A DNA stretch of 64,000 nt from Takakia lepidozioides (Eukaryota > Plantae > Bryophyta). A model generated the notes under the pieces. That model did no database searches. It was not told the DNA's origin and saw only the letters and a list, made by a program, of their open reading frames with translations. The translations under genes were made by a program, and so were the position numbers. Shown here in pieces: positions 1,154 through 58,744 of the stretch (position 1 is its first letter; each line of letters opens with the position of its first letter). The stretch is from NCBI GenBank assembly GCA_030704615.1, contig CM060734.1, positions 57,164,001 to 57,228,000 of the forward strand. Direction: 5' to 3'.

Positions 1154-1266
1154 TATGGATACCAGATGAGCAAGCCATAGGTAGACAGAAAAATCCGTTC
1201 TACTACAACAGGCGTCTTAGGGCACTATGTTTTATCACAATGGTGGATCAGCTGTTAGTTCTTACA

Positions 1267-25900: not shown

Positions 25901-27893
25901 CCTGGCCGCCCTGGAAAAAGGCAAAAAGGTGCATGGTGACATCATCAAAGCTGGAGTTGTACCAGACGTCATTCTGAACACTGCCATCGTCAACATGTAT
26001 GCCAAATGCGGCAGCATCGAAGATGCAAAGGGGGTATTCAACAATATGGCTGAGAAAACTGTGGTGTCCTGGACTGTTATGATTGCAGGATATGCGCAGC
26101 ACGGGTGTGGAAGGGAGGCCTTGGAGATGTATAAGCAAATGATGGGGGAAGGGGTAAAGCCAGACCAGGCCATGTTTGTTTGCGTTTGCAATGCGTGTGC
26201 AAGCCTTGCAGCGCTTGAAAAGGGCAAAGAGGTCCATGGTGACATCATCAAAGCTGGAGTTGTACCAGATATCATTCTGAACAATGCCCTGGTGGACATG
26301 TATGCCAAAGGCGGGGGCATGGAGGATGCAAAGGGAGTGTTCGACAAAATGACTGAAAGAGATGTGGTGACCTGGAACGCTCTTATTGCAGGATATGCCC
26401 AGCATGAGTGTGGTATAGAGGCCTTGGAAACATATGAGCAAATGATGCGGGGAGGGGTGAAGCCCAACCAGGTCACGTTTGTTTGTGTTTGCAATGCGTG
26501 TGCAAGCCTGGCAGTCCTGGAAAAGGGCAAAGAGATCCATGGTGACATCATCAAAGCAGGAGTTGTACCAGATGTCATTCTGAACACTGCCCTGGTGGAC
26601 ACATATGCCAAATGCGGGAGCATGAAAGATGCAAAGGAAGTGTTCTCCAGTATGGTTGAACGAGATGTGGTGACCTGGAACACGTTGATCGCAGGATATA
26701 CACAGCATGGGTGTGGGATAGAGGCTTTGGAGACCTATGAGCAAATGATGCAGGAAGGGGTGAAGCCGAACCAGGTCACATTCGTTTGCGTTTGCAATGC
26801 GTGTGCAAACCTGGCAGCCCTGGAAAAGGGCAAAGAGGTCCATGGTGGCATCATCAAAGCTGGGATTGTACCAGATGTCATTCTGAACAATACCCTGGTG
26901 GACATGTATGCCAAATGCGGGAGCCTCAAGGATGCGGAGGTAGTGTTTGACTATATGGCCCAGCGAGATGTGGTGTCATGGACTGCGATGATTGCAGGAT
27001 ATGCCCAGCATGGTTGTGATATGGAGGCCCTGCAACTGTTTCAAGAAATGCAAATGGAAGACTTGAAGCTGAACGGTATTACGTTTATATGTGTTCTCTC
27101 TGCATGTAGCCATGCTGGCCTGGTGGATGAAGGCAGATACTACTTCAACTCCCTGAGTCAAGATCATGGCATCACTCCAGCAGTTGAGCACTTTGGCTGC
27201 ATGGTGGACCTTCTTGGCCGTGCGGGGCAATTGGATGAGGCAGAAGGCTTAATTTACAAAATGCCTATGAAACCAGATGCTGTGGTGTGGAGGGCCTTGC
27301 TTGGTGCCTGCAGAATTCATCGCAATGTGGAGATGGCTGAACGTGCGGCAACAGCTATTCTCAAGTGGGATGAACAGGACGGGGCGACTTATGTGTTGCT
27401 ATCAAACATCTATGCTGCAGCTGGCAGGTGGGACGATACTGCAAAGGTGAGAGAAATGATGAAGGTCAGAGGGGTTAGAAAGGAGCCAGGTCGCTCCTGG
27501 ATTGAGGTCGGTAACAGAGTGCACACATTTGTTGTAGATGACAAATCGCATCCAAAAGTTGAGGAAATCCATTCTGAGCTGAGAAGATTGTCTGGGCAGA
27601 TGATGGAGGCAGGGTATGTGCCTGATACGCACTTTGTATTGCATGACATGGGGGAGGAGCAAAAGGAATTTTCTCTGTGCCACCACAGTGAGAAGCTGGC
27701 CATTGGTTTTGGGCTGATCAGCACGGCCCCTGGGACGCCTCTCCGCGTTATCAAGAATCTTAGGGTGTGTGGTGATTGCCACACCGCCACCAAGCTCATC
27801 TCAAAGATTGCTGGGCGAGCAATTGTTGTACGGGACTCTAACCGCTTTCACCACTTTGAGGATGGGGTTTGTTCTTGTGGGGATTACTGGTGA
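22990..27893 (+). CDS. PLS-class DYW-type PPR protein with three N-terminal PDF motifs; predicted exons 22990-23215, 23391-23470, 23747-23945, 24144-24223, 24403-24535, 24686-24780, 24972-27893
   Basis: Paralog of 7140-11762. 5 PLS triplets, PG box KEPGRSWIEV, HSEKLA/CGDCH, SCGDYW*. In-frame exons: WQEFFKDPSQWLDCSVDK|(diverged) QDYRQSTQEGSWIQGSFSPPW; WHEYFKDPSQWSDKHNGK|TDLRSPDYRHK..LWVDGWSNPPWV; LWKEYFSDPSQWWDNQGKK|IYRRRPDFKHKSTYDFLWIDIYKKPAWV. Confidence 0.9.
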
Positions 27894-29670: not shown

Positions 29671-30616
29671 CCTATAGACAGAGACACGCACCTTGATCAC
29701 TCCACATGGTCCTAGTGCACATGGGTATGTAGTTCAACCTGGCCTAACTTATGTGGACAGCATGGAGCAGGTAATCATGAGCAAAGTGTGGGAACTAGGT
29801 GGTATCACAAAGATTGCCAGCTTTAGACTGGGGTTTTGTTACTGTTCCGAGTCAGAGAGGGAGTAGCCATTACTCCCTTTTTTTTCCCAGACCGCGTGGG
29901 TGGGTCCAAAAGGACCCTTATTATTTTTTTGTTTTTTTCCGCAAAGCCCTTTACAGGGGTCGCGGGAGCAAGAGGTGGTGTTCAAGCACCCCTCCTGCCC
30001 CTTGTAGGCAAGGTCATCTTTCGGGACCCCTTGTGAGGCTCTCGCGAACCTGCAAAGATGCCGCCATTTCCAACTCATCCGTTGCAACGTTAAAAGATGC
30101 CAACGTCTGCGAGGCATTCGTTAGAGCCACGTCCATGGACGGCAACACATTCGAAGCCCGCTTCAGTAGGGCATCAAATCGTGCAAACAACTCCAACGGC
30201 CCTCTCAATGCAACATCAAGCACGTCCTTGTGAGCAACACTTGAGGCCATTTCCAAAGAGCGCAAGAGATTAATGGGGCCACCAAGGCCTCCCCTCTTTT
30301 TATATGGATGGATGGATGGTTCCTCCTGGAGGCTGGATGGCTGGCCGGTTACTATTGTTGTGCCTAGAACGATACATCACCAGAACAGATATGGCAAATC
30401 AATTGGAACACAAATGAACACTAAAAGTTATAGGATGCATCTCAGCAATGTGCGTGACGGGGCATGTACATGTCACTCGTGAAATTTTGCATCATCCATA
30501 ACGACCATGGCTTTTTCTAACCCTAAACTGGAAAGTTGACATCATGCTGGATAACGCCTTCCATGTATGCTGGCAATCAGACCCTATTGTTGGAAGAGCG
30601 AGAATAGTAAGCTGCG

Positions 30617-32141
30617 ATGAGCGACGTCACCGCCAATCCTCGGCAGAGCGTGCAGTGCCGCCCAGTTGGTGGAGGTGTTGGTAGTGGCGACAGCGGTAGC
30701 AGCACAAAGCAAGCGAGCGAGCGAGCGAGCGTTGTGCAACAGTGGGCCCCACGCCAATCAAGCCGCCTCGATCGGCTCATCACTCAACTCATTCAGCCAT
30801 ACAGACAGCCAGCTCCAGCCCTGGCGAGCAACACAACAAATCCCACAACCCCTCTCATGTTCCTGATGCGCACCACCACCAGAAGCCAAGCTCCAGACAA
30901 TTTCAAGAAGCTTCGTCATCTTCACCACGGTCTCCTCCCCTGCGGATGTTCTTCCACTGGCGCCCCACCGACTGAAGAACACCCACTGCGTCTGTTGAGC
31001 CCTCTCCCACTGCGCCTCTCAGGTACGGTCCGAGGTCCCATGCTGATCACTTCTCCCCCAGGTTCTCCATCCCATTCTCGGCAGTGGCTTCAAGGCGTCC
31101 CTACCTCTCTTGGTCATGAGCCTCTTCACGCGCCTTCTTCTCCAGTTGTGCAACCCGCATTGGCGACCCCATTACTCTTCCCACAGCATCAGACGCCTAT
31201 CCCTGTAGACCGTACCCCGTGCCCAGCTTGCGGTCGCCTTTTTGCGCGCATCAGAGGGCTTGCGCGACATCAGCGCACATGTGCGGCTCTTCATCAGACG
31301 GGCACAGATGGTACTTCTCCATTTCAGCCCCGTGTCTTGCATGCACCACCTCCAGCCTCTGCATGGCATTGGCTTTCAGCTCTAGATGCACTGGGCGCGC
31401 TTCAACTAGGACTGCCATGGCCTCGTCTTTATACAAGAATCCCGATGCCCCTGCGTCATGAGGTCCAATGGGCACTCCGTCTGCCATTAGACAGGCTCGC
31501 TCGTGATCCTGATGATATACCAGCATGGTATTTTTTCTTGTTATTTCCTCAGTGGTGTGCCCCCTCGCGGCGGTCAGTCAGGGCACAGGGAGACGCACAT
31601 CCGTCTTCACCGTTTCTAAATCTGGAGATTGGGAGAGTCTACAAGATGAGCATTATTTACAAGCACTGGCTCTCGCGGCACGTGTGCCTTCGGCTTCCTC
31701 CACACAGCCACCATCATCGGCCCACAGGCGACTCCGTCATAGTCTCATATTAGGCCGTGTTGTCGAATACTCACGCACAGCCAGGGCTTTGGCACCTTTC
31801 ACTCCAGCGCCCCCATCAGCGGCTACTGTCACTGCCCTTGAAGCCCTTCACCCATCAGCTCAGGATATCCTTCCGCTCTTCGTCGAGGACTTTGAGCCAG
31901 ACCAGGATCTCGAGCTGGATCGGAAGGTCTTCACTCAGGCTTTTACGCGCTGTCCCCATTTTGCAGCAGCAGGTCCTTTCCGGTCTCTTGTATGAGCACT
32001 TATGCGACTGTTTCTCTCCACAGGACTTTGCCAGTGGCTTCTCTCAGCTATTTCAGGTATGCTCCTTTATTGCTGCCGGGCATATCCCTGCCCAAGTGGC
32101 CCGTCTCCTTGGGGCCTCCAGAATGTTGGCTATGAGCAAAC
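30617..32141 (+). mobile_element. CRE-like (RLE-type) non-LTR retrotransposon, 5' part (frameshifted)
   Basis: C2H2-like finger CPACGRLFARIRGLARHQRTC; downstream ..AAAGP.. and ARLLGASRMLAMSK, which joins in frame to PSVRPIAAREVFYRL at 49251 once the insertion is removed. Confidence 0.8.
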
Positions 32142-32911
32142 GAGGGCAGCAAAGCCGTGAGCATATTCCTGGATGCGTGAGCAGATTCAAAGCGTGAGCA
32201 AATTTCTGATGCGGACCCCAAAACCGTGGGAACAAGTGGGCCTATTGCCGTGGACGCCAACTTCACTACAACGACGCAATCTCCGCTCCATCAGACCGAA
32301 GACAGACAGATTCCATGACGACAAAGTGGCACGAATGCACGATGAAACATTCACGGATGAATGGATTTGGGATGGACGTAAAAGTGAAATGGATGAACGT
32401 TGGATGAAGCACGGATGAAAATTGTCCAGATGAGGGGACTATAGACAATTGTATGAGCATGTCTCGTGAGGGATCAGCAAGCGCAGGGACCAAGCATTAA
32501 GGTGTCGTCAACGACATCTTAAATCGCATACTCAACATGAAAAATGAACCCATGAAAATCGTTGCAAGATGTCGTGCACCTAAGCATCGTGCCACAACAT
32601 ACATTGTTGTCCACCACACAATCTAAGCACACAATCCTAGAAAGCTATACCACAATCGCCCCCCTAGCTGGTGGTTAGGTCCCTCTAACTCCAGATAGCT
32701 ACAAGATGTAATAGCCACAGCTGTACTAAGTCCTCTATCACTGTCCCTATTGTACTCAAACTCTATAGACCAAGAGGTCGGGTACAAGAGCAACCCCATC
32801 GTTAGTTGTCGTCTTGCAATCTGTGAACTTGAGTCAGGATCTCGTGTGTTGGTCTCCTAGTAGCTTGGCCTTGCATTTCTTGTTAGCCTTCCATGGTTGT
32901 ATCCACTCCCA

Positions 32912-33060: not shown

Positions 33061-34330
33061 AAACTTGCAGGTACCACTGCCAGGTTTGGGTCAACCTTTC
33101 CATCAACATTTGGAAGGTGACATGGCGCGCAATTACGCACATGGTCCTTCCAAATCATGCCATCCCGACCCTCCAAGATCAGGACTCCTGAGGGCAACAG
33201 CTCTTGAACCCTCAAAATAGTACGTCCTGCAGTCACATCCAAGGTCGTAGGAGCAGTCTACTGCAGATAAACATAGTCACCAGGGTTGAATCTCCGAACC
33301 CTAGGACGATAGCCCCCACCACGTATGGTAGCATACCTCAACGTATCACGATGTTGTGCAATGGCAAGGTTCTCGAAAGCCATGGGCATGACTTTCTTGA
33401 ACAACTCTGCACGCTGCTCACATGCATGTGCCCACACGTCCGGATCGTCAAGGTTAAGAACTGTAGCAGCTTCTCTACGAATGGATGTAGGCAAATCCGG
33501 CTCTCGGCCAAAGAGAAGAAAGTATGGTGAGAAGGAGGCAAGTGATGCTTGCTTGCTGAACCTGTAACCCATGGCTAACCAGGGTAACTGAAGGTCCCAA
33601 TCTCCTAGGTGTCCCTTCTCCAAGCCATACTTGCGCAAACCCCTCTTTACTGTCTGAACAACTCTCTCTGCCAAGCCATCGGCCTCAGGATGATCCCGAG
33701 AAGTGGTGGGGTGGTCTATCAAGGCCTTGTCACACAAAGCCTGAAACTCCCCCAAGAACTCTCTCCCTTGGTCCGTGAGTACCTCAGCTGGAGCACCGAA
33801 TCGGCTAAGCATACAATCCAAGAATGCATACGCAGCTCCCTCACTAGCCTTATCAGGCAATGGAACCAATTCAATCCACTTGGAGAAGTGCTCCACCATC
33901 ACCAACACGTACTTGTTGTGGCGCATGGTCAGTGGCAACGGCCCTGCGAAGTCAAGACTCCACCTGTAGCCCAATCCCATGATCGGAAGAGGGTGCAATT
34001 GTGGAGTAGGGGTGTGGAATGAAGCACGCACCCTGTCACACACCATGCACCTAGCCACAAATTGTTGCACCTCTGTGTGCATACCACGCCACCCATACTG
34101 CCCCTGCAGTAGACTATGAGTGCGTCGCACCCCAAAATGCCCCAACTCCTCATGGGCATGCCGCACTAACCGTGCCCGCTGTGTTGGGTGAGGCACAATC
34201 CTCACTCGACCATCCTCCCACACTCAGAGCAGGTGTGTCCCCTCCCACTTGAACCTCTTGGCTTGTTGTAGGATCCGATCCCTCTCCTTGGCAGTCACAG
34301 TGGCTGCAGTGTCTCCAGTGCGGAGGTAGT
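33060..34330 (-). pseudogene. Gypsy integrase
   Basis: HEELGHFG..CMVC (HHCC), SLDFAGP, TDQGREF, GLAER (DDE), FNPGDYVYL; in-frame stops at ~33258 and ~34225. Confidence 0.92.
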
Positions 34331-34370
34331 CCAACACAACTGAATCCTCGTGTATATCTTTGGCACCACC

Positions 34371-35173
34371 TTACTCATTGTTGGCCTCAGGGTCCTCAGA
34401 CACTTGATCTACAATCATCCCTGTTGCAGGTCCAACCTGGCCTTCCGCTGCCAAGATACACAGAAATGCAGATGCATGCCATCCGGGCACCATCTCCTCG
34501 TCCGTCTCACCATGCCACCGAGCTCCAGTGTCATCCTGCTGGCTCGTGCAACGATTGCGACTCAACCCATCTGCATTGCGATTGACCAAACCCGGTCGAT
34601 GCACCACCTGAAAGTCATACTCTTGAAGGATGAGTGCCCACCGTGCAAGCTTCCCCGTAAGCTTGTCTGACTCCATCAACCACTTGAGTGGTTGGTGATC
34701 CGTGACAAGGGTGAAGAGATTGCCGTATAGATAGCACCTGAAGTGTGCCACGGCCCACACTGCAGCTAAAGCATTCTCCCTCATATGAGCTATACTTAGA
34801 CTCTGCAACATTGTTCGAGCGGCTAGCATAAGCCACTACGAACTCTCTTCCCTCATCGTCCACCTGTGTGAGCACCGCTCCAAGCCCCAGCATGCTCCAA
34901 TCTGTATGCAGCTGAAAAGGACGCCCCCTGATAGGTCGTCTCAAGATGGGCACCGAGGTCAACCTCGCCTTGAGCTCTTGAAAAGATTGTTCATGCTCAT
35001 CTTCCCACTGCCACTCCTGGTCCACCTTGGTCAGCTTGGTTAGAGCCTTTGCAATGGCACTAAATCCCTTAACAAACCGTCTATAATAGTTTGCTAACCC
35101 CATGAAAGCTCGAACTCGGCTCACATCCGTGGGGCGTGGAACCTGTGCAATGGACTCTACCTTAGTCTGCTGT
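34371..35173 (-). pseudogene. Gypsy RT connection and RNase H
   Basis: RAFMGLANYYRRF, LHTDWS..GLGAVL, VAYASR, TDHQPL, RWAL, NADGLSR; frameshift near 34770. Confidence 0.92.
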
Positions 35174-36349
35174 CACTACAACAAATTGCGGCTTTTACGT
35201 CTCTGTGTTATGACTGCAAATGCAGTCATGGAAGCCATTTACGACTTCCTGACTCTGCAGACGTAAAGACCTAGTCAGTTGTGACATGGCAGATATGACT
35301 CTCCAGGCTGGCTGTCACGTGGCACCAGAGCAGCTGTGGGGGTAGTCATACACGCTGGCTTTACTGAATGACTGAACGGACAGTGTAATCCATGTCAGCG
35401 GCTGTGCAAGAGTGGCACGTGCTCGATGCAGGAAATGACACGTGGCAGAGTGTTTAGCTCTCCATGACTGCGAACTATGACTACGGGTGTGCTAATCCGG
35501 TTGCAACACGTGGCGCATTGCAGTTTTTACACGTGGTCCATCAGCAGATTGACATGTGTCATGATGGGTGTTTTTTTGGGGTGTATTGCTATTTTTTTAC
35601 ATATTTGTATTTCTGCCACGTGGTGTAGTACTATTGGAGAGTGAAAATAGATGTAGTCATTATTATGACTATGATAGCAGTCATGTACATGTCTATTACA
35701 ACAATGAAATATAATATATAATACAAAGAGAACAAGGCAGCAAGACATAACTGCAACAAGCTGAGCAAAACCAAGAGATTGCATACCATCTCTATTTACC
35801 AATCTATTTATCATTATCATTTTTGTTGCGATCTAAAAATACATTAAATAGTCGCATGTTCTCATGTGAATTATTTTGTCTAACTATAACACTTTGAAAA
35901 GTGTTCACCCAGAATCTTCTAACTACTCATGTATTCCATCAATCTGCAACCCATCAAAAACGACTTGCATGGCTTTAAGAATTACTACAGCAAGGACATT
36001 TGTTTGTTTACCAAGTTCTTGCATAAGATGCACCAACCAATATTGCATTGTGAGACACTCACTCGCTATACTCCAAAGCGTCCAGGGAAGGTCACTGAGC
36101 AACCTGCCAAGGCGGAAACAATTAAGAGAATTATCTAATACCATATATGAAAAACCAATGCCAGTGTTGTTTATGGTAACTTCTATCCCATGTCTTAAAC
36201 AAACCAAAGCAAAAAGGTTGGTGTGTATTGGCGAAGTCGTCAGATACTTCACAAAGAAACATGCACTAAAAATGAAACCCAGGATGATAGGAAGGTCACT
36301 CACGTTTATACAAGAGACATCTTGCCCATTGCCCAACACCCTGCGTCAC

Positions 36350-39300
36350 CCACACTCTATCTCTATTCCTTCAGCTATCCATGCCTCTGCACAAATCAAG
36401 CATTCATCCTTGCCTTGCTGCTAGCAGCTGACAATGATAGCCTACATTTGTTCTAGGAAACACCCAACTCAGCGTAGCACACTAGTTCCTATGCTGAATT
36501 GCGTCTGCTACTCTCTGAAATGTAGCAGGCATTCACCTTTCTGCCCCGGTTGACCCATCAGTGACTGGGCTCAGATAACTATTCATTCCACAGCTTCTCC
36601 TCATCTCTGTTACCTATTTTTTGACACTTTCCTGTTGTCACATTGGCAGTATCATGTCAAAGTCACTCCAAACTAGATTCACTCAACCAGCTAACTTGCA
36701 GAATTGAACATGTAAATTTAGGGCCGATTCTGATAAGAGGGAAAAACAGGGTGAAATGTGTTGAAGAAGATGCCTTCATTAGCAGTGCCTGATTTTATCA
36801 CTTGTGCCGCTGCTCCCAGTTGACCATCTACCCATGCAGGTTTCTTGTAGCTATTGATCCACAGGGAATCACAGGTAATCTTGTGCTTGAAATCTGGCCT
36901 TCTTGGATGAATCTGGACCCACACAAAATCCCTGCTCCTTCAGCTATCCATGCCTCTGCACAAATCATGCATACATCCTCGCCTTGCTGCTAGCAGCTGA
37001 CAATGACAGCCTAGAATTGTCAAAGCAAACACTAGCAGGGAAAACAGGGTGAAATATGTTGAAGAAGGTACCTTCATCCTTTTCTCCATCATTTGCTTTC
37101 AGGTGTCCAAAGCCCCATCCCGCGCTCCTGCTCTGCACACCCTTCAAGCATCGCATTCCACGACACCACATCTAGTTCAGCCATAGTGTTGAACACTCCC
37201 TTGGCATCCTCAATGTTCCCACATTTAGCATACATGGCCACCAGAGCCATGTTCAGGATGACATCTGGTACAATTGCAGATTTGATGATGTCACCAGGGA
37301 TCTCTTTGCCCTTTTCCAGGGCTGCAGACGCACTGCAAACGCACACAAACGTTATGTCGGCGGCCTTCACCCCTTCCCCCATCATTTTCTCAAAGGTTGG
37401 AGCCTCCATCCCGCACCCCAGCTGTGCATACCCAGCAAGCATCGCACTCCACGACACCACATCTCGTTCAGCCACAATGTTGAACACTCCCTTTGCATCC
37501 TCAATGCACCCACAATTGGCGTACATGTCCACCAGGGCAGGGGCAGTGTTCAAAAGGACATGTGGTAATTTGACAGGCATTCACCTCCTGACTTGGCTAT
37601 TCCCAACCCATCCTGCCATTGGCAAGAGATTCCATAGAAACTGATAGTTGTCTGTTTGACTGTATAACTATGTATCTCTTGCTTTCTTACAGCTTGTACT
37701 GTGACACGCGTAATGCTCTTGTTGTGTTGAATCATTTCACGCCTTCAGGTTTCAGAACAAACATTACCGTCTTTCTTTATCAGACATGTGCACCAAGACA
37801 GAATCTCACCAAAAGATTGTTGGTGTTCAACAGTACCATACATGAAGATAACTAGCACCAAAAGGGCATATGAAGCTTATTCTGCTCTCCACTGGTATTA
37901 ACTTGCACCAGGACTTTCAATGGCTGTCTTCCAGTCCACCCACGGCTCGCTGTAAATGGCTTGCAACCTACAGATTTTCAAGAGAGCTGATTACCATGAA
38001 AATTTCAAAACTGGCTTTACAAACCTAATAATTCAAGCATAATCAGCATTCAAGCTAAGGAAGCTTTACAAGCATCGTGTTGCGAGTAAAGCCTTGGCAA
38101 TGTCACCAGGAAATCCCTAGCTGATTGGATGACACTGAAATAATGGAGCTTGAAATCCGGCCCTCTTGGTTGAATTTGGGCCCACACTCTATCCCTGCTC
38201 CTTCAGCTATCTATGCCTCTGCACAAAATCCTTCAGCTATCTATGCATACATCCTTGCCTTCCTGCTAGCAGCTGACAATGACAGCCTAGAATTGTTCCA
38301 GCAAACACCCCCAACCCTACTTATCAACGAGCAATGAGCTAACTTACAAAATTCAATATGCATCTGAGGGCGTCTGATGAGAGGGCAAAACATGCTGAAA
38401 TAGGTCGAAGAAGAAGGTGCCCTCACCACACTGTCCTTGACCTTGTGTCATGACCCATGGAGGATTTGACCTTGTGTGTGATGCTTGTGTCTGTAGTCAG
38501 GTAATGTCGGATTGGTCAGTGAGAACTTGCACCACGGTGCAGCTGAGCAGGCAGACTTTGAAACACGGTCTGCTAAGACCAAGCCGACTCTCCCAAGAAC
38601 CTTGTAAACATCAGGAAGAATATCAAATCATGGTACTAACAGGAGCCAACAACCCACATTTGCAGGATGGACAAAATTCTGCACATCGTACATTTCAAAA
38701 AAACCACACCTTGCAATTGCGGTCGCACCCTCGTGAAGGATCTTAAAAAAACTCATGCCAGCTCTGCTCCATGATTCAAATTCAGGGCCGAGTCTGATGA
38801 GAGGGCAAAATAGGCTGAAATAGGTCGAAGAAGAAGGTGCCCTCACCACATTGTCCTCGACCTTGTGTCATGACCCATGGAGGATTTGACTGAACATGAA
38901 CCCAAGATGACCTCTAGTGTGTGCTGCTTGTGTCTGTAGTTAGGTAATGTCGGATTGGTCAGTGAGAACCACCACGGTGCAGCTGAGTGGGCAGAGATTG
39001 AAACACGGCCTACTAAGACCAAGCTAACTCTCCCAAGAACCTTGTAAACATCAGGAAGAATACCAAATCATGGTACTAACAGGAGAGCCAACCCACATTT
39101 GCAGGATGGACAAACTTCTTCACATCGTACATTAAGAAAAAGCCACACCTTGCGATTGCGGTTGTCCCACCATCGTGAAGGATCTTTTAGAAACTCATGC
39201 CAGCTCTGCTCCGTGCTGTAAAATCAGGGCCGAGCGGGTAGAGATTGAAACACGGCCTGCTAAGACGAAGCTGACTCTCCCAAGAACGGCGGGCTCCCAG
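36350..39300 (-). pseudogene. Captured, scrambled PDF-exon, intron and PPR fragments
   Basis: IHPRRPDFKHKITCDSLWINSYKKPAWV (36800-36915); PPR motifs 37100-37560; ~420-bp tandem duplication (38372/38792) of the PDF2 exon-intron unit; WHEFLKDPSRWWDNRNRK|gt at ~39150-39200. Confidence 0.85.
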
Positions 39301-39559
39301 CCGAAACCTCCTCGCACACATACCCTAGCGTTTCTAGGGTTGCTTGCTCCAGATGCGAAGGTTGATCCAACTGCGGGCCTCCCATGCATGTTTGCCCTCT
39401 CTCCCGCTCGCTCGCTCTAAGTCCCAACCCTCTCTCTCTCCCTCCCGCTCGCTCTAAGTCTGTTCACGCTACCGTGATGAGCAACTTTTTAAGTTTTTTA
39501 ACCTTTTTGTAAACCCTAAAAGCCCCTTTTTGATTTTTTTTTGTTTTTTATTTTTTTCC

Positions 39560-39740
39560 TTAAAGGAAACCACAAGCCCTTGAGGAGGGGGAAAATTCAC
39601 CCGCCTTCATTTATGGGCCATAAGACCTACAGGACGATCAACGTCAAGACATACCGTCTCGAACAATCCCACACACGGGATAAGGGCAGCGGGTTTGAAC
39701 CCCAAACCACAAGGGCGACACACTGTGCACTTACCAGCCG
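39560..39740 (-). mobile_element. tRNA-derived SINE-like copy (5'-truncated)
   Basis: Shares GGGCAGCGGGTT(T/G)GAACCC..ACACTGTGCACTTACCAGC with 60460-60536; B-box-like GGTTCAAACCC on the minus strand; A-rich tail. Confidence 0.55.
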
Positions 39741-40203
39741 ATGTGATTTTTTTTAAATCTTTGTTTTTTTTGGGTTTTTTTTAATTCATTCTAGTGGTAA
39801 GAGTCTCCGTTTTTTTAAGATATAAATACTCATATATTATATATATAACCAGAAAAGCATGTGTCGACACGTGTAGTCATGTAGTGATTCATCCATGTGA
39901 TGATCTGGCATAATGCATTAGAGTGAGAGTCATGAAGTCATATGTCTGTCTTGCAATATGCACACGTCATTCCAGTGTAGCCATGACCGTGACTGGTAGT
40001 CATATCTGCCATGCCAATATTCGTGGTCAAACATGTTTGACCTGTGTTGCGCAGAGTCCGAAGCCATGCAGTCGCATATACGCCTTCTCCAGACCTGCAT
40101 TATGACTTCAAAAGCATTTTACGACTGCAAATGGCATTTCTGCCACAAATCTGTCATGACTGCGCACCCATGGGAGTCATAAAAGCCGCAATCTGTTGTA
40201 GTG

Positions 40204-40955
40204 TGTACCCCCAATCCTTCAGGATATATCATGTGACCCAGATACTCAATCTGGTTGTGGAAAAACTTGCACTTTCCCGGATGTAACTTCAATCCGTGCG
40301 CCCTCAAGCGCTCAAATACCCCTTGAAGGTATCTCTCATGCTCTTCCACCGTAGCACTAAAGATGATGATGTCATCTATGTAGCACCGAGCAAACTCCAC
40401 CCCTGCTAGAATCCTGTCCATGACTCTCTGAAACTCTGCCGGAGCGTTCTTAAGCCCAAATGGTAAGAACCGCCACTGGTATAGGCAATCCTTCCCGTGC
40501 TCATTGATCCCCCAGAATGCCGTCTTTTGCTTATCCGCCTCCTTGATCGGCAACTGCTGATATCCAGATCGTAAATCCAACGTGCTAAAGACCTTGGCAT
40601 GCCCAATGGCATCAAAGATCTCCTCTGGTGTTGGCATGGCATACTTATCGGACTTGGTCTGACGATTTACAGGCCGGTAATCACCGCACATACGTCTCTC
40701 CGTCCAATTGCCAAAGACATCCTTCTTGGCTAGCATCACTGTGGCTGAAGCATACTCTCCCCCAGATAGCTCCACCAAACCAGCCTCCCAAAGGTCCTGA
40801 GTTCTCATCTGAATCAAGGACCTCTCCATGTCACTGTATCTATAGGGTCTCCGAAAGATTGGCGTGTCAATAGCCAATTCAATGCGAATCTCTTGACCCT
40901 TCAGTGCTCCTAAGTCCTTCAAACTGAAGGCAAAGCAGTTCCTGTAAGCCCTCAA
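40204..40955 (-). pseudogene. Gypsy reverse transcriptase core
   Basis: PIFRRPYR, RMCGDYRPVN, LDLRSGYQQ, LPFGLKNAP, YIDD, KCKF, YLGH. Confidence 0.95.
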
Positions 40956-41317
40956 GAACCGCCGTATACGTCGTCTCTCTCCTCCGTGACTGCAACCTTG
41001 AGTCCAGCAGGCTTAGAGGTAGAAGACGCGTCCCGTGGTTGTTATGCTGCAACCTCTTGAGCAGTGACCACTGCCTCCTCTGTCAGTGACAATGTCTCAT
41101 TCTACCCCATCATCCCATCCTTGAGGACCTCCTCAATCCGAGAAAAATCCCCAACCTGATCCATCACCGCCGCCTTGGCTGCCAACTCCTTCTGAACCTC
41201 GAGCACCTCCAACGTGTGCCATGGATGTGGCCTGCACTTCGTGGTCCTCACCTGCTTGCCCCCACTCGCTGCCTGTACCGTCTCGATAGGCAGGGAGACC
41301 ATGAAGGGAAGAGTACT

Positions 41318-42300
41318 TCATACTCTGCGCTGCTCAGTCATAGTCAAGCTGATAATCCAGGTCAAGCAATTGAGATCTATTGCTTGCCCCAACACCTGAC
41401 GACGTGATGCCTCAGAAAGAGATGGCACCACCGTGGTACCTGTGGTAAAACCCATCGCCCGCTCGCGCTCGTCAGCATTGGGCTCCACTAATTGTTGCAA
41501 CTAGCTATCCCACAAGTGGCCAGGTCCACCATCCCGAAAAGCATGGGATCCTGGGAAGCTGAGCAGTGTAGGTAATGCTGCTCATGGTTGACCCACCCTG
41601 TTGACCACTGCCAAAGGCGAACGGTCATCGTGTCTCACACGTTGAGACTGCCTCCCTGTGTCCAAAATGCTATCCACTGTGAAGTGTGCTGGCCGCTGCA
41701 CCCCATCAAATGCACGCTTGAGCAGTGCGGGTGGCATCAAGATAGTCCACCATAGCCGTGGACGATGAGCCCATGACCCCACTGCAGCTGCATCCAGCAA
41801 CACTGCTGACCCAAGCCACGACCGGACTTGATGCACACCGGCCATCACCCTGGCCCGAGAATCACCCATCAGTGGTACATTCTCCAAGATGTATGCTGGA
41901 GATACAGCTTGATGAAGCTGCAAGTGGCGCAAAATCCGCACCATCTCCCAAAACAGACCCGTCCTCGAGTATCGCAATCCATTGCCATGCCTGGCTGATG
42001 AATGCCCTTGGCAGGGCCAACCTGCCACTACCAGATCAATGGAGCCAACCCGCTCCAAATCCTGTGCCCCCAGCAACGAAATGTCTGCTGGCAAGGCTTG
42101 TTGGTATCCACGAACTGCAGACACTGGCAACAAATCAGGGTACTGCTGTACCAACTGAGCAACATGGCGCAGTGAGACGCATCGTGCAGTCTCATCCCTC
42201 TCCACATACATGTAACGTTGAACTCGTACACTTGCCTGCTGTACTGCAGCCAATCTAGTGCTGATCCCGCCAAACAAGTCCAGAAGACATATGCCTTCAT
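41318..42300 (-). pseudogene. C5 cytosine DNA methyltransferase domain (DNMT3-like) within the Gypsy polyprotein
   Basis: Motif I LLDLFGGIS, II VERD, IV VVAGWPCQGHS (catalytic PC), VI ILENV, VIII HRPRLWW, IX ERERAMGF..GTT, X RRQVLGQAID; same frame through two stops (~41582, ~41502). Confidence 0.9.
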
Positions 42301-42603
42301 CCGGGCACTGCCACACAAGAGGTGTGGTGTCCAATGGCAACAACTGAGGTGGTCCTGGTGCAATCACCGCACTCTCCTCTTCTCCTGACGATACGAAGGC
42401 CTCTACCCAGGCTTGTTGTACCCGTCCATCAGCAGCCTGCTGCAAATCCTTGCTCGTACCCCATAATGGAGTGTGAGCGACCATGGCAGGCAACTCCGCC
42501 GTACCATGCAAGTCATCCTGCTCTGCTGGAGGTGGCACATCCTCTGCATGGGCATTGCCTTCCAGCAACTCTCCAGGCCAACTAACTGCAGCTGTAAAGG
42601 CGG

Positions 42604-43797
42604 CTAGTGTTGGTAGCTTGCCCGCTGGGCAGCCGCAATACCCCCAATGAATGTCACAGGGAGCTGTGCACGACGACCATCCCCTGACTGCCATCCAGGC
42701 CTGTAGGATGCTGACTCCTCCCAAAAGTCCAGGATGAAGCCCATGGGATATAACACTGCCCCACCAACAAGGACATCGTAAGAGACCGCGTCTGTCACAA
42801 TGGCCTTGGCTTGCATCACTGAGCCATCTACAGGATGATCTGGTTGTAGTCCAATGGCCAACTCACGCCGTGTCATGCCCCGAGCCTGCTCTGATCCTTC
42901 CAGAGATGTATGTATCTAGAAAGGACAAGGCTCCATATCCGCCTCCATGAGGCCCAAACCTGCAATAGCAGCTCTGCCCAACATCAGTGGCTGAGCTCCT
43001 GAGTCCAACAAGACCCGCAGTGGCCGGTACTTCTTGCCTGCCGGTCCACTCAAAGTGAAAATGCCTCCCTGGTTGTCTAACAAGACAACTCCAGGTGTCA
43101 CCATGGCGCGCTCAAAGGCTGGCCTAGCTGGCAGCTCCGTCAACCTGGTAGCTGCAGCTTGCCATGGCGCAGCCGTGGCCGTCTTGACCCTCAAATCCGA
43201 GGATCCCTCTGCCACTACACCTTCCAGTAACTCCGCAGAAGATGAAGTGACCTCCCCACTCTCGCAGAGTGTTGCTGCTAGTCTGAACACTGCAGCTGGT
43301 CTTACCCCCGGCGTCGCAATCATGGTTGCCGAGAATAGTGGGGCTTGACACATAGAGGTGGCTGCCCCCAATAACACACCGGCTGCACTAGCCTTGGTAG
43401 CAGGTGTCAGTGCTGCACGTGTAGCTCTCCCCAATGGCATAGTAACCTCCGCCTCGGTAACAGTCGGGCGAGAACTAGGTGCCATGGATGGCGTCGACAC
43501 TGTCTCCGCCAATGTGAATGACTGAGGAAGCCTCGCCTGACGGCTTGCCTCCCCACGCTGTGGATCCAATTCTACCTCTGCACCTCGTGGCTCAGGAACT
43601 CGTGCTGCTCCTCGAGTCATGGCTACAGCAGACTCCACCTGCACTAGTGGTAGTGCTGCTCCGCACATGAATCCCATGCCTCCCATATCTCCTCCCTCAG
43701 GAGCAGGAGGTGGACCATCCCGCCTGGGAGCCGGTACCACCTGAGCTGTAGCCATGGCAGCGAGCCTCTGCTCTAGCTGCTGAAGCCGGTTGGCCAT
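42604..43797 (-). pseudogene. Gypsy gag-pol linker and aspartic protease
   Basis: VLLDSGAQ active site and downstream YDVLVG; in-frame stop at 42916. Confidence 0.85.
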
Positions 43798-43899
43798 GTC
43801 TTGGTCAACACCCTGACCTCCGCATCCTTGGCCATGTTGAGCTTGCCCTTGGCCTGCACCTCGTGCCCGACCACCTCGTCCTCTCTGGGCTGGTCCATC

Positions 43900-45215
43900 T
43901 CACCCCCGGCCACCATTGTTCCCTTGGAAATGGCCTGGGCGCAACTCAGGGTGCAAGTCATAACACTGGGCATCTCCATGCCCATACTTGTCACAACGCC
44001 CACACTGCAACTGTGCAGGCTGTGCTTGTGTCGGCCTTCTGCCACTCTCTGGGCAATCTCTCTTGACATGGGGTCCTCTACATGTCCAACATATCACCCC
44101 TGGTTGTTGTTGGCCTGCAAAGATGCCACGGGCCTCTGCACCTGAGGTCCCCTGTAAGCTCCATGGAACTTGGGTTGGGCAACCTTGCCCCCCTGACCAC
44201 GTTGTTGGGCAGTCCCTTGTACCTATTGGCACCAAGCTGCACCTCGTGCAGGCATGTCCTTGCCAAATCCAATGGTAACAACTCGCTCCTCCACCATGTT
44301 GAGCTCAATCCGCTCAGCCAGCAGAAACACATCCGCTAATGTGGGTTGGGCTGCTTGTAACAGGGTTGCATCCCGCACCCTTCTCTTGAGCTCCTTGTCC
44401 AAAATTCCATACTAGAACTGGACTGCCTGAGCTTCAGTAACCCCTTGGGTCACACTTATCAAGCGCCTCATCCGAGTGTAGGCCTCTCGCAAGCTCTCAC
44501 TGGATTTGCGTTGGAAGTCTTGCAAACTTCGCAGCTTCTCTGTCCGTACACCTTGGTAGTTCCTCCGCAACTCCTGGAAGAACTCCACCACCGGGTTGAA
44601 TCTAGGCACATGTGTTGTAATTCTGGCAGGAGGAGTAGTAGCACCTTTTGAACGGGTACCACCTACACAAGTGCCGGCACTACTTGTTCCACTACTAGTG
44701 CTTGTAGTTGGAGATGTTTGTGTAGCTGCTGGTGTCACCACTGCCCTTGTGCCTCTAGTGATTGAGACATAGTTAGGTGACCAATTCTCTCGCCACTCCT
44801 TAATCTCCACCGCATGTCCCCGCCTAAATTCATGGTAATCATACATGGGCGGCCCCTCAAGGTGCTGGAATAGCCCCTTCCACGCCATAAAGGGCGTAAA
44901 CAGTTGTGGATTGCGCATTTGCTGCAAATCACACCAACTGTCAAACTCTTGTATAAAGTCATCAAGCTCGATGGTGCCCACAGCTCCAGAGTACCTACGT
45001 GGCCCCTTGGTAGCTCCATACATCTCCTCCATCGTGTCCCACAACAATGGCACGGAAATGACTTGCACCCTCGGCGAGAATCCTCCTGACTCCGAGTCTG
45101 AACCTTCCTCAGTAGACACTGAAGGTGAAAGTGGTCTAAACCGCACACCTTGTCTTGTGTACCCACTAGTATCGCTGGTGTTTGTACCGGCACTCCCCTC
45201 AGCAGCTGGTGGCAC
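43900..45215 (-). pseudogene. Gypsy gag with two zinc knuckles
   Basis: RRYSG..LDDFIQEF, LQDFQRKSSESLREAYTRM, CWTCRGPHVKRDC and CGRCDKYGHGDAQC. Confidence 0.8.
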
Positions 45216-46029
45216 CTCCGTGATGAAAACTCATAACCCAACCGGTTGTCAACCTGTCTCTAATCCCCACTTTCTACAAGGTAACCGAGTAAAGAACCTG
45301 TTGCGGCTACTGGTTCAAGCAGGAATAATAGGTTTATAACGTAGACCTGTACCTGCACCTGCATCCACCGCAAGCACTCCTATGGTCTGCTGGTCATCAA
45401 CCCAGCCTCACCATAGAAGAAACACTGGTGGTCTTGCTGGTCATCACTCCAGCCTCACCACCGACAGCATACTCTAGGATTGGCCGGTGATCAAATCCGG
45501 ACCAACCTCCTATGAAAACAAGCGCCCACACAAAGCTAACATGGCGCACAGTCAAGCATGCAGGTGTGGAGGGGATCCAAACACAAGAAAATCAAGACCG
45601 CAACTCCCCCACAACAAAAACACTCCACAGTGTCGCTCCTGCAAGGACACCCCAGCCCAAACCCGGACTGACTCTTGCCTCCACCTACGGAAAGGTTTTG
45701 GCCTACAGAGAGGGTGAAATACTATGGAGAAGAGAAACTAAAGCAATTCCTAACCCCAGAATGCTCTCATCCCACCACTCTCCCTCCTGTCTCTATCCAC
45801 TCGCTTGTATGGCCGTGGCAAGTATCCTTCAATATCCCTCAATCAATCCTTCAAGAGCTCTTCAACATTGTCCACCAAAGCTCCTCAAAGGGTCCTCCAA
45901 GGACCCCAAAGATCCTCCAAACACTCCTCCAAGGACCCCAAAGATCCTCCAAATACTCCTCCAAGGGCCCTCAAATATCTTCCAAACAATCCTCCAAAGG
46001 CCCTTAAATTTCACTAAGTCATTTCACTG

Positions 46030-46430: not shown

Positions 46431-46929
46431 CTACTAGGGTTTGTAATTTTGTGTGTTGGGACTGTCTCACATGCCAAGTGAGGTGTCGAGCCTCACTTGA
46501 GACATGGAGATAGGTTTTCCCCTTGTGAGTGTTGAGGAGGCTCATCTTCTTGTAGTTGAGCCTCCATGAGCTTCTCTCACCTCCATGCAAGAGAGTAGCT
46601 ACCGCGTGAGCAGTTCACGTGAGCACGCTCACGCTTTAAGTAGTAAACGTGAGCATAATCCCTTACGCGTGAGCAGATTAGTGAATGAGAGCCTACAACC
46701 GAGGGAAGAAGATGACCTATTGTCATGGACAAATACTACACTGTACAGACACAATCTCCACCCCATGCGACGGAAGAATCCTTCATGGGTGACGACCATA
46801 TGGTACGAATGTGCGATGAAAAGCTGTCGGATGAATGGTTTTGAGATGAATGAAAAAATGAATGGATGAATGTTGGATGACTTTGGATGAAAAATGAGCA
46901 ACATGAATGAACCATGGTGCGTGTGCAGG

Positions 46930-48310
46930 TGCTCGGGATTAGAGTGTCGTCAACGACATCTTAATTCCCAGTACGAGTTGGCACATGACAGCTTACGGAA
47001 AACAAAAACATTAACCAAAAAAATTTCAACCCAAAAACTTTCAAGGCGAAGAAGCCTTGGCGGTAAGGCAGAGTGCAGGTGGTGGGGATTAAGGTGTCGT
47101 CAACGACATCTTAATTCCAAGCAAGTTTTAAAAACAAAAAAAAAATCCGTTTTTTTTTTTTTTTTTTTTTTTTTTGTTGCCCCCCCTTCCCCCCCCCCCC
47201 CAATGTGCCAGATTAAGGTGTTGTCAACGCCATCTTAATTCCTAGCAAGTTTTCAATAAAAATAAAAAAATCCGTTTTATTTTATTTTCCCCCTGAATGT
47301 GCCAGATTAAGGTGTCGTCAACGACATCTTAATTCTCAGTACGAGTTGGCACATGACAATTCATGGAAAAACAAAAAAAAACCCAAAAAAATCACACAAA
47401 AAATTTCAACCCAACAAAATCTGATGGCGAACAGCCTTGGCGGTAAGGCGGTGTGTGTGTAGGTGCTAGGGATTAAGGTGTCGTCAACGACATCTTAATT
47501 CTCAGTACGAGTTGGCACATGACAATTCATGGAAAAACCAAAAACCCCAAAAAAATTCACCCAAAAAATTTCAACCCACAAAAATCTGATGGCGAACAAG
47601 CCTCGGCGGTAAGGCGGTGTGTGTACAGGTGCTGGGGATTAAGGTGTCGTCAACGACATCTTAATTCCCAGTACGAGTTGGCATATGACAATTCATGGAA
47701 AAATCAAAAACCCCAAAAAAATTCACCCGAAAAAATCTGATGGCGAACAAGCCTTGGCGGTAAGGCAGTGTGTGTGCAAGTGCTGGGGATTAAGGTGTCG
47801 TCAACGACATCTTAATTCTCAGTACGAGTTGGCACATGACAATTCATGGAAAAACAAAAAAAAACCCAAAAAAAATCACACAAAAAAATTCAACCCAAAA
47901 AAATCTGATGGCGAACAGCCTTGGCGGTAAGGCGGTGTGTGTGCAGGTGCTAGGGATTAAGGTGTCGTCAATGACATCTTAATTCCCAGTACGAGTTGGC
48001 ACATGACAATTCATGGAAAAACCAAAAACCCCAAAAAAATTCACCCAGAAAATTTCAACCCACAAAAATTTGATGGCGAACAAGCCTTGGTGGTAAGGCG
48101 GTGTGTGTACAGGTGCTGGGGATTAAGGTGTCGTCAACGACATCTTAATTCCCAGTACAAGTTGGCATATGACAATTCATGGAAAAATCAAAAACCCCAA
48201 AAAAAAGATTCACCCGAAAAAATCTGATGGCGAACAAGCTTTGGCGGTAAGGCAGTGTGTGTGCAGGTGCTGGGATTAAGGTGTCGTCAACGACATCTTA
48301 ATTCCCAGTA
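46930..48310. repeat. Tandem array of 151-167-bp units, each with a palindrome; ~485-bp higher-order repeat
   Basis: ATTAAGGTGTCGTCAACGACATCTTAAT cores at 47312, 47478, 47644, 47795, 47962, 48128, 48281 (spacings 166,166,151,167,166,153), plus 46944, 47094, 47217. Confidence 0.9.
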
Positions 48311-49241
48311 CGTGTTTTGAAATGTTTATTTATAAAGCACGAGTTCACCTCTCTGCCTTCTTTAGATTTGGGTGTGAGCATTTCTCTCAACCTTGGAAAC
48401 CGTTTGATTCAAGGTGGCCTCAACTCTGCACCTCTGCTTTCAATTTCAATGTAGTCTTGTGTTTGTTCTGTGTTATGCCATTATCTTGTTTGATTGCTTT
48501 TTTTGATTCCTACACAAGTTGGGCTAGCAGAATATATGTGGACTTACATTGTTTGTGTGTGTGTACAGGAGCCCAAGGTCGCCACGGTTCCTCCCTTTCT
48601 TCGCATATCCGCAATTTTTCCCAAGTCCAAAAGCAGATTTTAAATTGTCATGTTATGCGGAGGCTGCAGCTTCGGAATTTAGTCTCCTCTCTTCTACCCC
48701 TACTGTGCTTTTAAATAGAGAGGGTTTTGTGCAAAGCAGGGCTAGTGTCTTCATAGACAGTTCTGCCTTCATTTTGGACACCGACTCCGATAGCATAGAA
48801 TATTCTTCGTCGGAATGAATCTGCAGTTTTTAAACTATTTAGTTTGAAGCACCAAATGGCCTCTCTACCTTCTTTGCAATTGTGTGTCAGCAACTATGTC
48901 GACTTCTGATACCTAGTGAAAGGACAATCACAACCCTCACCAGTGGGCAGAGGTTCACTCTAGAGCTAGGTGGATTTAACAACCACTACTCAAAAATGCA
49001 TCTTAGTTTTGCATTCATCCACAAACTACATTCATCCATGTGCCATTCGTCGAACATACATTCATCCCCCATTCATCCATCGTTCATCCATCATTCATCC
49101 ATAACGATGAATGAAGTATGCATGATATACTAGACACAACCCGCAGTAATAGGTCTTCTAGGCCGAATAGGTGTCCGCGGTTATAGGTGAGCACATGCAG
49201 AAGCGTGAGCAGAATTTTGCTCACGAAATTTAGCAATCCCC

Positions 49242-58700: not shown

Positions 58701-58744
58701 CTGGTTATGTTAGTAGTTTGGAGTTTTTGGACATCTCCATAAAA

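Follow-up and report, generated by a model that had tools for sequence, protein, structure and literature searches.

A Pack-CACTA transposon of Takakia that carries reshuffled PDF-PPR-DYW gene fragments and has probably been copied as a unit to many sites

Introduction

The closest described counterparts of the element reported here are the Pack-CACTA transposons of Arabidopsis, of which Col-0 holds ten copies (Catoni et al. 2019, PMC6379663). According to the passages of that paper considered here, their ends begin CACTACAA, about 26–30 terminal bases are conserved and the target site duplication (TSD) has 3 nt; the arms differ, transposase is lacking, the interior consists of chromosomal fragments partly of unknown origin, and related ends occur with other interiors. 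Our element from Takakia lepidozioides has all of this in common with them. It differs in its number, which we estimate at roughly 50–150 loaded copies, and in its load: the Arabidopsis elements carry pieces of unrelated genes, whereas this one carries repeated modules of one gene family. With the Pack-TYPE elements of rice and maize it shares terminal inverted repeats (TIRs), a TSD, a match to coding genes, multi-fragment cargo and the lack of a transposase (Gisby & Catoni 2022, PMC8903248). Most rice and maize Pack-CACTA clusters are given there as low-copy, and the passages searched contain no mention of moss, "Physcomit-" or "non-flowering".

The cargo and its donor family share a motif of ~50 aa, the PDF motif, with OSB proteins (PMC6963530, PMC13393729). 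In the OSB proteins, as those passages describe them, the motif is C-terminal and follows an OB fold, whereas in the genes of the stretch analysed here (64,000 nt, hereafter the window) it precedes a PLS-PPR array and a DYW domain. The main-text passages found in the two papers do not mention a PDF-PPR fusion (PMC13393729 gave 0 matches for PPR), the supplement of PMC13393729 yielded no motif strings, and searches for the fusion in a literature largely without subscription papers listed no paper on it.

A CACTA element inserted in a gypsy element

An earlier note on this DNA had proposed a Pack-CACTA with near-perfect TIRs and a TSD, loaded with gene modules in non-native order. The ends, the TSD and alignments to genes confirm this: the element at 35174–40203 is a non-autonomous CACTA DNA transposon of the Pack-CACTA type, ~5 kb (5030 nt) long. 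Its ends and surroundings are as follows.

35174–35203, + strand: left TIR, begins CACTACAAC
40174–40203, − strand: right TIR, begins CACTACAAC
35171–35173: left TSD, TGT; the empty-site joint skips 5033 nt
40204–40206: right TSD, TGT
35204–35720: left subterminal arm with frequent ATGAC and CACGT; inner boundary approximate
39780–40173: right subterminal arm; inner boundary approximate
33258–45230, − strand: host Ty3/gypsy element with gag, a protease-like motif, C5 DNA methylase, RT, RNase H and integrase (Pfam); limits are ORF limits

Short TIRs, a 3-nt TSD and motif-bearing subterminal arms are all present, as in CACTA-type elements. The TIRs are real, but "near-perfect" overstated them, since 27 of 30 nt are complementary (90%); such a pairing is expected by chance ~6e-5 times across the window. 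The density of ATGAC is 22.7/kb in the two arms versus 2.5/kb window-wide (~9-fold), and that of CACGT 15.5/kb versus 1.2/kb (~13-fold). The enrichment is confined to the arms, which are the top motif windows of the stretch, and the two motifs are likely to be transposase binding sites.

The claimed TSD holds on both sides. The insertion splits the gypsy pol between RT and RNase H, and taking out the element and one TSD copy leaves an uninterrupted RT-RNaseH frame through the site. Other gypsy copies retain the exact empty site: contigs of run X1 (n = 5) and run X7 (n = 1, 2173 nt) join 35170 to 40204, skipping 5030 + 3 nt.

The PDF-PPR-DYW genes of the window

The window holds two intact members of the gene family and three broken ones, C, D and E.

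7140–11762, + strand: gene A, with a transit-peptide-like exon, two PDF motifs, a PLS-PPR array, E, E+ and DYW
22990–27893, + strand: gene B, with three PDF units (the first degenerate), PLS-PPR, E and DYW

The gene A model is open and encodes 1254 aa with four GT-AG introns; open models also exist for gene B, in which one intron is not fixed. Around these two genes we found neither CACTA TIRs nor the subterminal motifs. A profile of the window's PDF C-halves matched 413 proteins at E ≤ 0.001, including P0003, a Sarcandra protein with SSB and PDF, and we regard the PDF motif of the cargo as homologous to that of OSB proteins.

Database records contain PDF-PPR fusions in Diphasiastrum complanatum (a clubmoss), Sphagnum (a peat moss) and Adiantum (a fern). 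The order in these proteins is that of A and B (PDF, PLS-PPR, E), with DYW in P0131; they are annotated only as hypothetical or PPR and, as far as tested, are not transposon-borne. They represent the kind of gene behind the cargo, and the fusion itself is older than the element. The PDF-PPR architecture also suggests that the host is a seed-free plant. Among proteins of 594–1892 aa a C2-half homolog search gave no candidate, a homolog search with an alignment query matched in 3 of 1236 candidates, and an atlas search with the PDF piece returned only scores below 0.8. Pfam matches to Transpos_assoc on the PPR arrays were judged spurious.

A single-strand mosaic of family fragments

Between the arms lie the following segments, all on the − strand.

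35721–36347, − strand: u2, an interior segment; a splice-acceptor-like AG with its last letter at 36104 precedes a possible last exon
36348–36780, − strand: intron 3, exon N2 and intron 4; intron 3 without donor, N2 the PDF N-half
36784–37032, − strand: intron-4 end and exon C2, 85–88% identical to genes A and C
37036–37077, − strand: second copy of the intron-3 start, 40 nt, joining the PPR piece via a 7-nt overlap
37071–37567, − strand: PPR piece of ~1.6 PLS-type triplets (Pfam PPR), 74–78% identical to triplets of A, B and D
37565–38147, − strand: u1; it closes with the end of a diverged exon resembling an N-half, its GT donor and the start of intron 4 (37586–37565)
38148–38326, − strand: intron-4 end and C2 start up to PDFK; acceptor gone
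38327–38774, − strand: tandem unit 2, with PDF exon N1, intron, exon C1 and intron-3 start
38775–39217, − strand: tandem unit 1, containing the DPSRWWDNRNRK exon
39218–39287, − strand: remnant of a third unit (unit 0), with an internal deletion at a 3–4-nt overlap
39288–39530, − strand: u3, GA-rich, with a donor-like GTATGT; possibly a 5' UTR exon
39531–39755, − strand: SINE-like insert with tRNA-like head, A-rich tail and an apparent ~11-nt duplication

The earlier claim of ~3 kb of PDF exons with their introns is borne out: 2348 nt of the 2940-nt span 36348–39287 match genes A–D of the window at 70–90%. These exons and introns lie on a single strand in non-native order; the remaining interior segments, u1, u2, u3 and the SINE-like insert, do not match the PDF-PPR-DYW genes. 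The PPR motifs reported for the element were recovered by Pfam, and the reported 420-bp duplication corresponds to ~420-nt tandem units identical at 366 of 395 aligned bases (92.7%), accompanied by the third, shortened unit. The SINE-like insert shares 58 nt with a second copy, located at 60462–60519; neither ARAGORN nor Rfam matched it, and "SINE" is a reading of sequence alone.

Introns 2, 3 and 4 of the gene models are found in the cargo and several GT/AG sites are intact, judged from the GT-AG models of A and B (splice sites and frame). This points to capture at the DNA level with introns retained. Exon C2, the PDF C-half (36912–36784), is open and keeps its acceptor, and the PPR piece has 132 codons in frame with small in-frame deletions and without E/DYW. 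Exon N2 (36631–36537) has two stops, and the adjoining intron 4 is shortened and has lost its acceptor. Tandem unit 2 has a stop codon in N1, a 23-nt deletion and no C1 acceptor; in unit 1 the C1 acceptor is gone and C1 is frameshifted. The longest ATG frame has 163 aa, and the cargo does not qualify as a functional PLS-DYW editing factor, with no match to exon 1 or E/DYW. With stops, lost acceptors and neither transit peptide nor DYW, we read the cargo as dead, most likely riding along without protein function. Relaxed selection on the cargo PPR was not seen by dN/dS, whose values (0.24–0.53) overlap those of the gene triplets (0.15–0.67); CpG ratios likewise do not separate cargo from genes.

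Identity of the modules to genes A, B and C is 70–90%, and the cargo PPR has a dS of at least 0.36 to the nearest local triplet. This divergence excludes the neighbouring genes and places the donor elsewhere, presumably in another paralog. The earlier note had reached the same conclusion from the motif DPSRWWDNRNRK (39149–39184), described there as closer to the OSB consensus than its counterpart in the intact genes. Scored against a profile built from 31 OSB-type N-halves, the captured motif reaches 35.3, above its best-aligning counterpart B N1' (23.4), but not above the intact genes overall (A N1 33.7, B N1 36.5, A and B N2 43.1). The motif argument is weak; the other-paralog donor stands on divergence. 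The three intron-4 ends of the cargo are 88–93% alike and share letters absent from A, B and C; support in the intron-4 tree was only 78/88, with no starred branch.

The two tandem units have the lost C1 acceptor in common, and also a deletion of 21 nt when compared with A and B, suggesting that the units were rearranged after function was lost. Alternatively, the mosaic may have formed first in a rearranged pseudogene or a multi-PDF paralog and then been enclosed and moved by two CACTA ends; by the Arabidopsis model, one-step enclosure would come from neighbouring insertions with complementary end loss, and the element would carry the shuffle without having made it. We consider this possible but doubtful. 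In its favour, the pieces are all on the same strand and from one sub-clade, family members can multiply PDF units within themselves, as gene B shows, and the broken C, D and E lie nearby. The internal copies are also 7–12% apart versus ~1% among element copies, and the intermediate that the model needs (PMC6379663, in the passages considered) has an example in the window, a lone CACTA end at 53763. This end, of another family, lies within a PDF exon of pseudogene C; no partner TIR was found for it, and 18 nearby frames contain no transposase. Against enclosure of a finished mosaic, u2 and u3 match no family member in the window, and run X1 has u2 joined to ends of intron 4 in other ways, at a depth several times that of single-copy DNA. 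These joints, 36120–38177 (X1 depth 774) and 36120–36908 (314, also in X5), have short sides and are weak evidence, yet they hint at several element versions with differing orders. Overlaps occur at two junctions, 7 nt between PPR piece and intron 3 and 3–4 nt in unit 0; compared with the window templates, clear overlaps are absent at most cargo junctions.

Segments u1–u3 have no counterpart elsewhere in the window, in Pfam, Rfam or ARAGORN, and a Pfam search of five longer and eight short (u1/u2) frames found no transposase in the interior. They may hold very decayed transposase remnants. On one reading u1, u2 and u3 are what remains of an autonomous CACTA's own transcript, the PDF/PPR part alone being foreign. 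A donor-like site in u3 by one arm and an acceptor with a last-exon-like stretch in u2 by the other, on the same strand, speak for it, a layout that presumably recalls the transcripts of autonomous CACTA elements. We nevertheless find this origin unlikely: the eight short u1/u2 frames and four longer interior frames are without Pfam transposase, and the arms are deeper than u1/u2 in contig depth.

Probable amplification of the loaded element

That no other copies might carry the cargo had been named as grounds for dropping the earlier proposal; depth points to many copies that do. Run X1 is identical to the window in unique DNA and may be its source. Summed depth in this run at each of six sites in u1/u2 exceeds that of a window-private allele 67–124 times. 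Run X5 leaves single-copy DNA nearly uncovered (~7% of seven bins), and four interior contigs reach depths of 25–28 with 0–12 differences to the window; they include 35370–36365 (depth 25.7, 12 differences), 37723–37942 (26.3, none) and 37974–38210 (25.1, four differences), which bridges the cargo junction at 38148. In the gypsy flanks, by contrast, the window's allele has an X5 depth of at most 5.2 at 14 of 17 listed sites.

We estimate that the interior and the junction at 38148 are likely present in roughly 50–150 near-identical copies, a ratio from contig depth sums, which are not copy numbers, under two rough calibrations (range 26–257). A many-copy interior between single-copy gypsy flank alleles indicates that the loaded element likely transposed as one unit to separate sites. 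Depth is greater in the arms than in the interior; family members with different interiors would produce this pattern.

The element is not spanned from end to end by any long read or contig, and of its chimeric junctions the one at 38148 alone is bridged at family depth with at least 31 letters on each side. One might suspect an assembly chimera, or passive amplification within the gypsy element. The exact TSD with its empty site, the bridging of a cargo junction in X5, an independent study, and the contrast between single-copy flanks and many-copy interior make either highly improbable.

Element relatives in RNA

Among the runs listed with this sequence none is on record as RNA. Runs X7 and X9 were taken as RNA by guess; both splice out the intron 19721–21007 of a single-copy CCCH gene. 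Element relatives are present in both, and RNA contigs from two studies cover u1, u2 and u3. One X9 contig aligns at 36003–36103 and stops at the acceptor AG with 28 unaligned letters, and some RNA contigs are up to 95–96% like the cargo. The RNA contigs differ from the window copy and the X5 majority at 36000, 36227, 36276, 36278, 37722 and 39349, so the RNA may stem from donors. Neither run covers the subterminal bins 35284–35725 and 39925–40145. This hints at best faintly at transcripts confined to the region between the arms, and we do not count it as evidence. No PDF-PPR intron joint is among the 15 listed of 290 joint rows.

These RNA contigs, the likely high copy number and the likeness of cargo and RNA invite the idea that the element family regulates or feeds the editing-factor family, by releasing siRNAs that target PDF-PPR-DYW genes or by offering scattered templates for new repeat combinations. 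Captured fragments are siRNA sources in maize, in the part of PMC13317346 considered here. We think such a role improbable. Besides the allele differences, no CACTA ends occur at intact genes A and B, the PDF-PPR fusion predates the element, and 70–90% identity to the local genes would leave few perfect 21–24-nt matches. No better founded, in our opinion, is the bolder version, in which a Pack-CACTA family specialised on one cargo would have spread about a hundred transcribed, spliced decoys of a hugely expanded PDF-PPR-DYW family. Acting on that family in trans, they would tune or diversify organellar RNA editing in a seed-free plant. The earlier suggestion of a vehicle for spreading and recombining editing-factor modules is likewise unsupported, given a cargo without transit peptide or DYW, the older fusion and the lack of TIRs at A and B.

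Discussion

We hold with good confidence that this is a Pack-CACTA with dead, reshuffled fragments of the PDF-PPR-DYW family, likely copied as a unit to roughly 50–150 sites. In the history we propose, an ancestor would have captured the 5' part (PDF exons, introns and some PPR triplets) of one paralog, from a sub-clade without a member in the window. Repeated modules would then have been duplicated, deleted and re-joined within already non-functional DNA, probably by template switching in break repair at short overlaps. A recent burst may have spread the finished mosaic, leaving copies ~99% alike, mobilised by transposase supplied from elsewhere. Some relatives probably have the stretch between their arms transcribed into chimeric RNA that does not code for protein.

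The element represents a clean case of Pack-CACTA from beyond the flowering-plant models; it stands out chiefly by its presumed copy number and by drawing all its recognisable cargo from a single editing-gene family. It is otherwise mostly ordinary: gene fragments are moved by a route already described, and nothing here indicates that working genes result. In genomes of this kind, dead fragments carried by transposons, about a hundred of them, can swell the counts of PPR and PDF. Since transposon RNA can be told from gene RNA by element-specific junctions, the capture/siRNA conflict model can readily be tested here. Were the family to regulate or feed editing genes after all, DNA-transposon activity would be tied to the rapid turnover that PPR editing factors undergo in early land plants, a turnover ascribed mainly to retroposition by a recent survey, in the part considered here (PMC13386178). 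As to the motif itself, AtOSB1 is described as binding single-stranded DNA in the passages of PMC6963530 considered; the cargo copies of the PDF motif are split and broken.

Ends and Insertion Site of the Element

35174-40203: the element, bounded by 30-nt inverted repeats
33258-45230, minus strand: the host Ty3/gypsy retroelement

An earlier note had described near-perfect terminal inverted repeats and a target-site duplication around captured cargo, and the ends bear this out. Both repeats start with CACTACAAC and are complementary at 27 of 30 nt; about 6e-5 such pairs are expected by chance in the window. TGT flanks the element on both sides. The insertion splits the gypsy pol gene between RT and RNase H (Pfam), and taking out the element with one TGT copy leaves a pol frame that is open across the join. 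Contigs of two sequencing runs contain the exact empty site, with 35170 joined to 40204 and 5033 nt absent (five contigs of run X1 and one 2173-nt contig of run X7).

Subterminal motifs of CACTA elements bind transposase. In the arms inside the inverted repeats, ATGAC occurs at 22.7/kb (versus 2.5/kb in the window) and CACGT at 15.5/kb (versus 1.2/kb); the rest of the window has no clusters of these motifs or similar terminal strings at this level. No transposase match was found among the five longer and eight short frames of the interior. The element has the features of a Pack-CACTA that are open to examination here.

An Old Family of PDF-PPR-DYW Genes

7140-11762, plus strand: gene A, with transit-peptide-like exon, PDF motifs, PLS-PPR array, E and DYW
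22990-27893, plus strand: gene B, with the same parts
about 1250-3430, plus strand: broken family member
53193-59159, minus strand: broken family member
61770-64000, minus strand: broken family member

The intact genes A and B carry two or three PDF motifs. Gene A, with introns called from sequence and reading frame, is predicted to be open over 1254 aa with four GT-AG introns, and a phase-0 intron appears to cut each of its PDF motifs into an N exon and a C exon. A profile built from six C-halves matched 413 proteins, and a parallel search also returned a Sarcandra SSB+PDF protein, an OSB. PPRs lie downstream of the PDF motif in 12 of the best 150 matches. Records examined for PDF-PPR matches included Diphasiastrum (6/10), Sphagnum (1/10) and Adiantum (1/10), and one match, P0131, has a DYW domain. 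This shared architecture argues that the fusion is far older than the element. Summed contig depth over the PDF/PPR bins is as high as over gypsy; the family therefore probably has very many members in this genome. Our literature search, to the extent of the texts available, returned no description of a PDF-PPR fusion, which supplements of PPR surveys could list.

The Cargo Is Rearranged and Decayed

Interior of the element, in minus-strand order (N1/C1 and N2/C2, N-half and C-half exons of PDF motifs; u1 to u3, segments of unknown origin)
1st: u3 and a SINE-like insert
2nd: a deleted remnant, then two tandem N1-intron-C1 units
3rd: end of intron 4 and start of C2
4th: u1, its end being an N-like exon end
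5th: 1.6 PPR triplets
6th: 40 nt of intron 3
7th: end of intron 4 and C2
8th: intron 3, N2 and a shortened intron 4
9th: u2

The intron-bearing PDF and PPR cargo proposed earlier is present, with 2348 bases matched to the family within a 2940-nt span. PDF exons never lie downstream of PPRs in genes A and B; the cargo order is therefore non-native. The reported 420-bp duplication corresponds to the two tandem units, which are 92.7% identical over 395 aligned bases. In neither unit is the C1 acceptor kept, and compared with A and B the two have a 21-nt deletion in common, so function had likely gone before the duplication took place. Exon 1 and E/DYW are absent from the cargo, its longest ATG frame is 163 aa, and stops are present in N2 and in N1 of the second unit. 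The cargo is dead and unable to edit. Short overlaps occur at two junctions (7 nt and 3-4 nt), and none at the remaining junctions against the templates compared.

The Donor Is Likely a Paralog Elsewhere

Cargo identity to genes A, B and C (C being a broken member) is 70-90%, and dS between the cargo PPR and the nearest local triplet is at least 0.36. The three intron-4 copies of the cargo are 88-93% identical to each other and share letters missing in A-C, with support of 78/88 and no starred branch in the intron-4 tree. The identity, dS and shared intron letters suggest that the donor is likely a paralog elsewhere. Divergence thus upholds the earlier proposal of a non-local donor, but not its reason, that a captured motif is closer to the OSB consensus than its intact counterparts. 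Scored against a profile built from 31 N-halves (27 non-PPR proteins, whose selection pattern favours W.D.R motifs), the captured motif reached 35.3, versus 33.7, 36.5 and 23.4 for N1 exons of the intact genes and 43.1 for both N2 exons. The motif argument is therefore weak.

Many Loaded Copies Are Indicated

16040-21668, plus strand: CCCH zinc-finger/SRI-domain gene, single-copy

To estimate copy number, contigs of four of ten candidate runs were compared with the window, with the CCCH gene as depth baseline. Single-copy contigs of X1 have depths of 52-69 and zero differences from the window, and X1 may be the source of its assembly. In X5, from a different study, single-copy DNA is ~7% covered over seven bins. 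X5 contigs of depth 25.1-27.9 with 0-12 differences cover the interior at 35370-36365, 37723-37942, 37974-38210 and 39875-40060, the third bridging the u1|C2 junction at 38148. A Poisson estimate from X5 gives 26-257 copies (51-128 at the likeliest coverage). In X1, depth sums are 67-124 times the window-private allele sum (143-149) at six u1/u2 sites and 137-603 times at arm sites. At 14 of 17 gypsy-flank sites among those listed, the window allele has a depth of at most 5.2 in X5; thus, the many copies lie outside this gypsy copy.

Read as ratios of contig depths rather than counts, with no contig spanning the whole element, these figures correspond to roughly 50-150 near-identical loaded copies inside a larger family with common arms. 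Multi-copy transposition of the loaded element is strongly indicated, though not read copy by copy, and the possibility that no other copies carry the cargo is at odds with the X5 and X1 depths.

X7 and X9 are guessed to be RNA; intron 19721-21007 of the neighbouring CCCH gene is spliced in both. All three segments of unknown origin (u1 to u3) are covered at low depth by X7 and X9 contigs, from which strand and level cannot be read. One X9 contig aligned to 36003-36103 ends at a minus-strand AG acceptor with 28 letters left over. Alleles of the X7/X9 contigs differ from this element copy at six sites among those listed; their source is therefore either a different subfamily or donor genes.

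Origin of the Element

53763-54330: lone CACTA end of another family, inside the N2 PDF exon of pseudogene C; CACTACAGG..., with GCGACGC-type subterminal repeats

In the account we consider highly probable, the 5' part of a paralog would have been captured, break repair among its repeated modules would have produced internal duplications and deletions, and a recent burst would have been driven by transposase acting in trans, with the cargo carried passively. The main rival, possible but rather doubtful and not exclusive of this account, is that the mosaic formed in a pseudogene and was then enclosed by two neighbouring CACTA ends, as proposed for an Arabidopsis Pack-CACTA in the available text of PMC6379663. 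The lone end inside pseudogene C is of another family but fits such enclosure; neither a partner end nor a transposase was found for it.

The earlier note saw in the element a vehicle for editing modules or a source of siRNAs. The available part of a maize report offers a precedent (PMC13317346), but genes A and B lack CACTA ends and the cargo is unable to edit. Neither the vehicle nor the siRNA reading is directly supported, and we regard this proposal as a whole as quite improbable next to capture, reshuffling and passive carriage.

The element is of a known kind, departing from the Arabidopsis, rice and maize Pack-CACTAs in copy number and single-family cargo. As far as the source texts extend, the Arabidopsis family has 10 copies (PMC6379663) versus the roughly 50-150 estimated here from depth, and rice and maize elements are mostly low copy (PMC8903248). 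Within the literature available to our search, nothing described Pack-type capture in bryophytes or ferns.

The Host Gypsy and Other Window Features

41582-42862, minus strand: C5 cytosine methyltransferase domain of the host gypsy (Pfam PF00145, E 1e-10)

The methyltransferase domain lies between a protease-like motif and RT; this gypsy copy has stops and frameshifts. The methyltransferase-bearing gypsy reaches a contig depth of 342 in X5, a high value. By domain layout it resembles KnitGypsy-Dnmt3 of the alga Klebsormidium, as given in the accessible text of PMC5890265, whereas the Takakia host is a land plant; our literature search found that name only in this paper. The PDF-PPR-DYW donor family and this gypsy host may merit more attention than the element itself.

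Between the editing genes lie a LINE-type RT remnant (4952-6810, minus strand, Pfam RVT_1) and retroelement-like frames without Pfam match (96-764, minus; 50611-51264, plus; 30611-31753, plus). A tRNA-like SINE family has a copy inside the element (39531-39755) and a related head at 60462-60537, and a MITE-like 594-nt element (60600-61193) has 53-nt inverted ends (87%). Units of ~166 nt form a tandem array at 46916-48316, adjoining a likely gypsy LTR region, and a 33-nt part of the unit is found again at 32496-32528.
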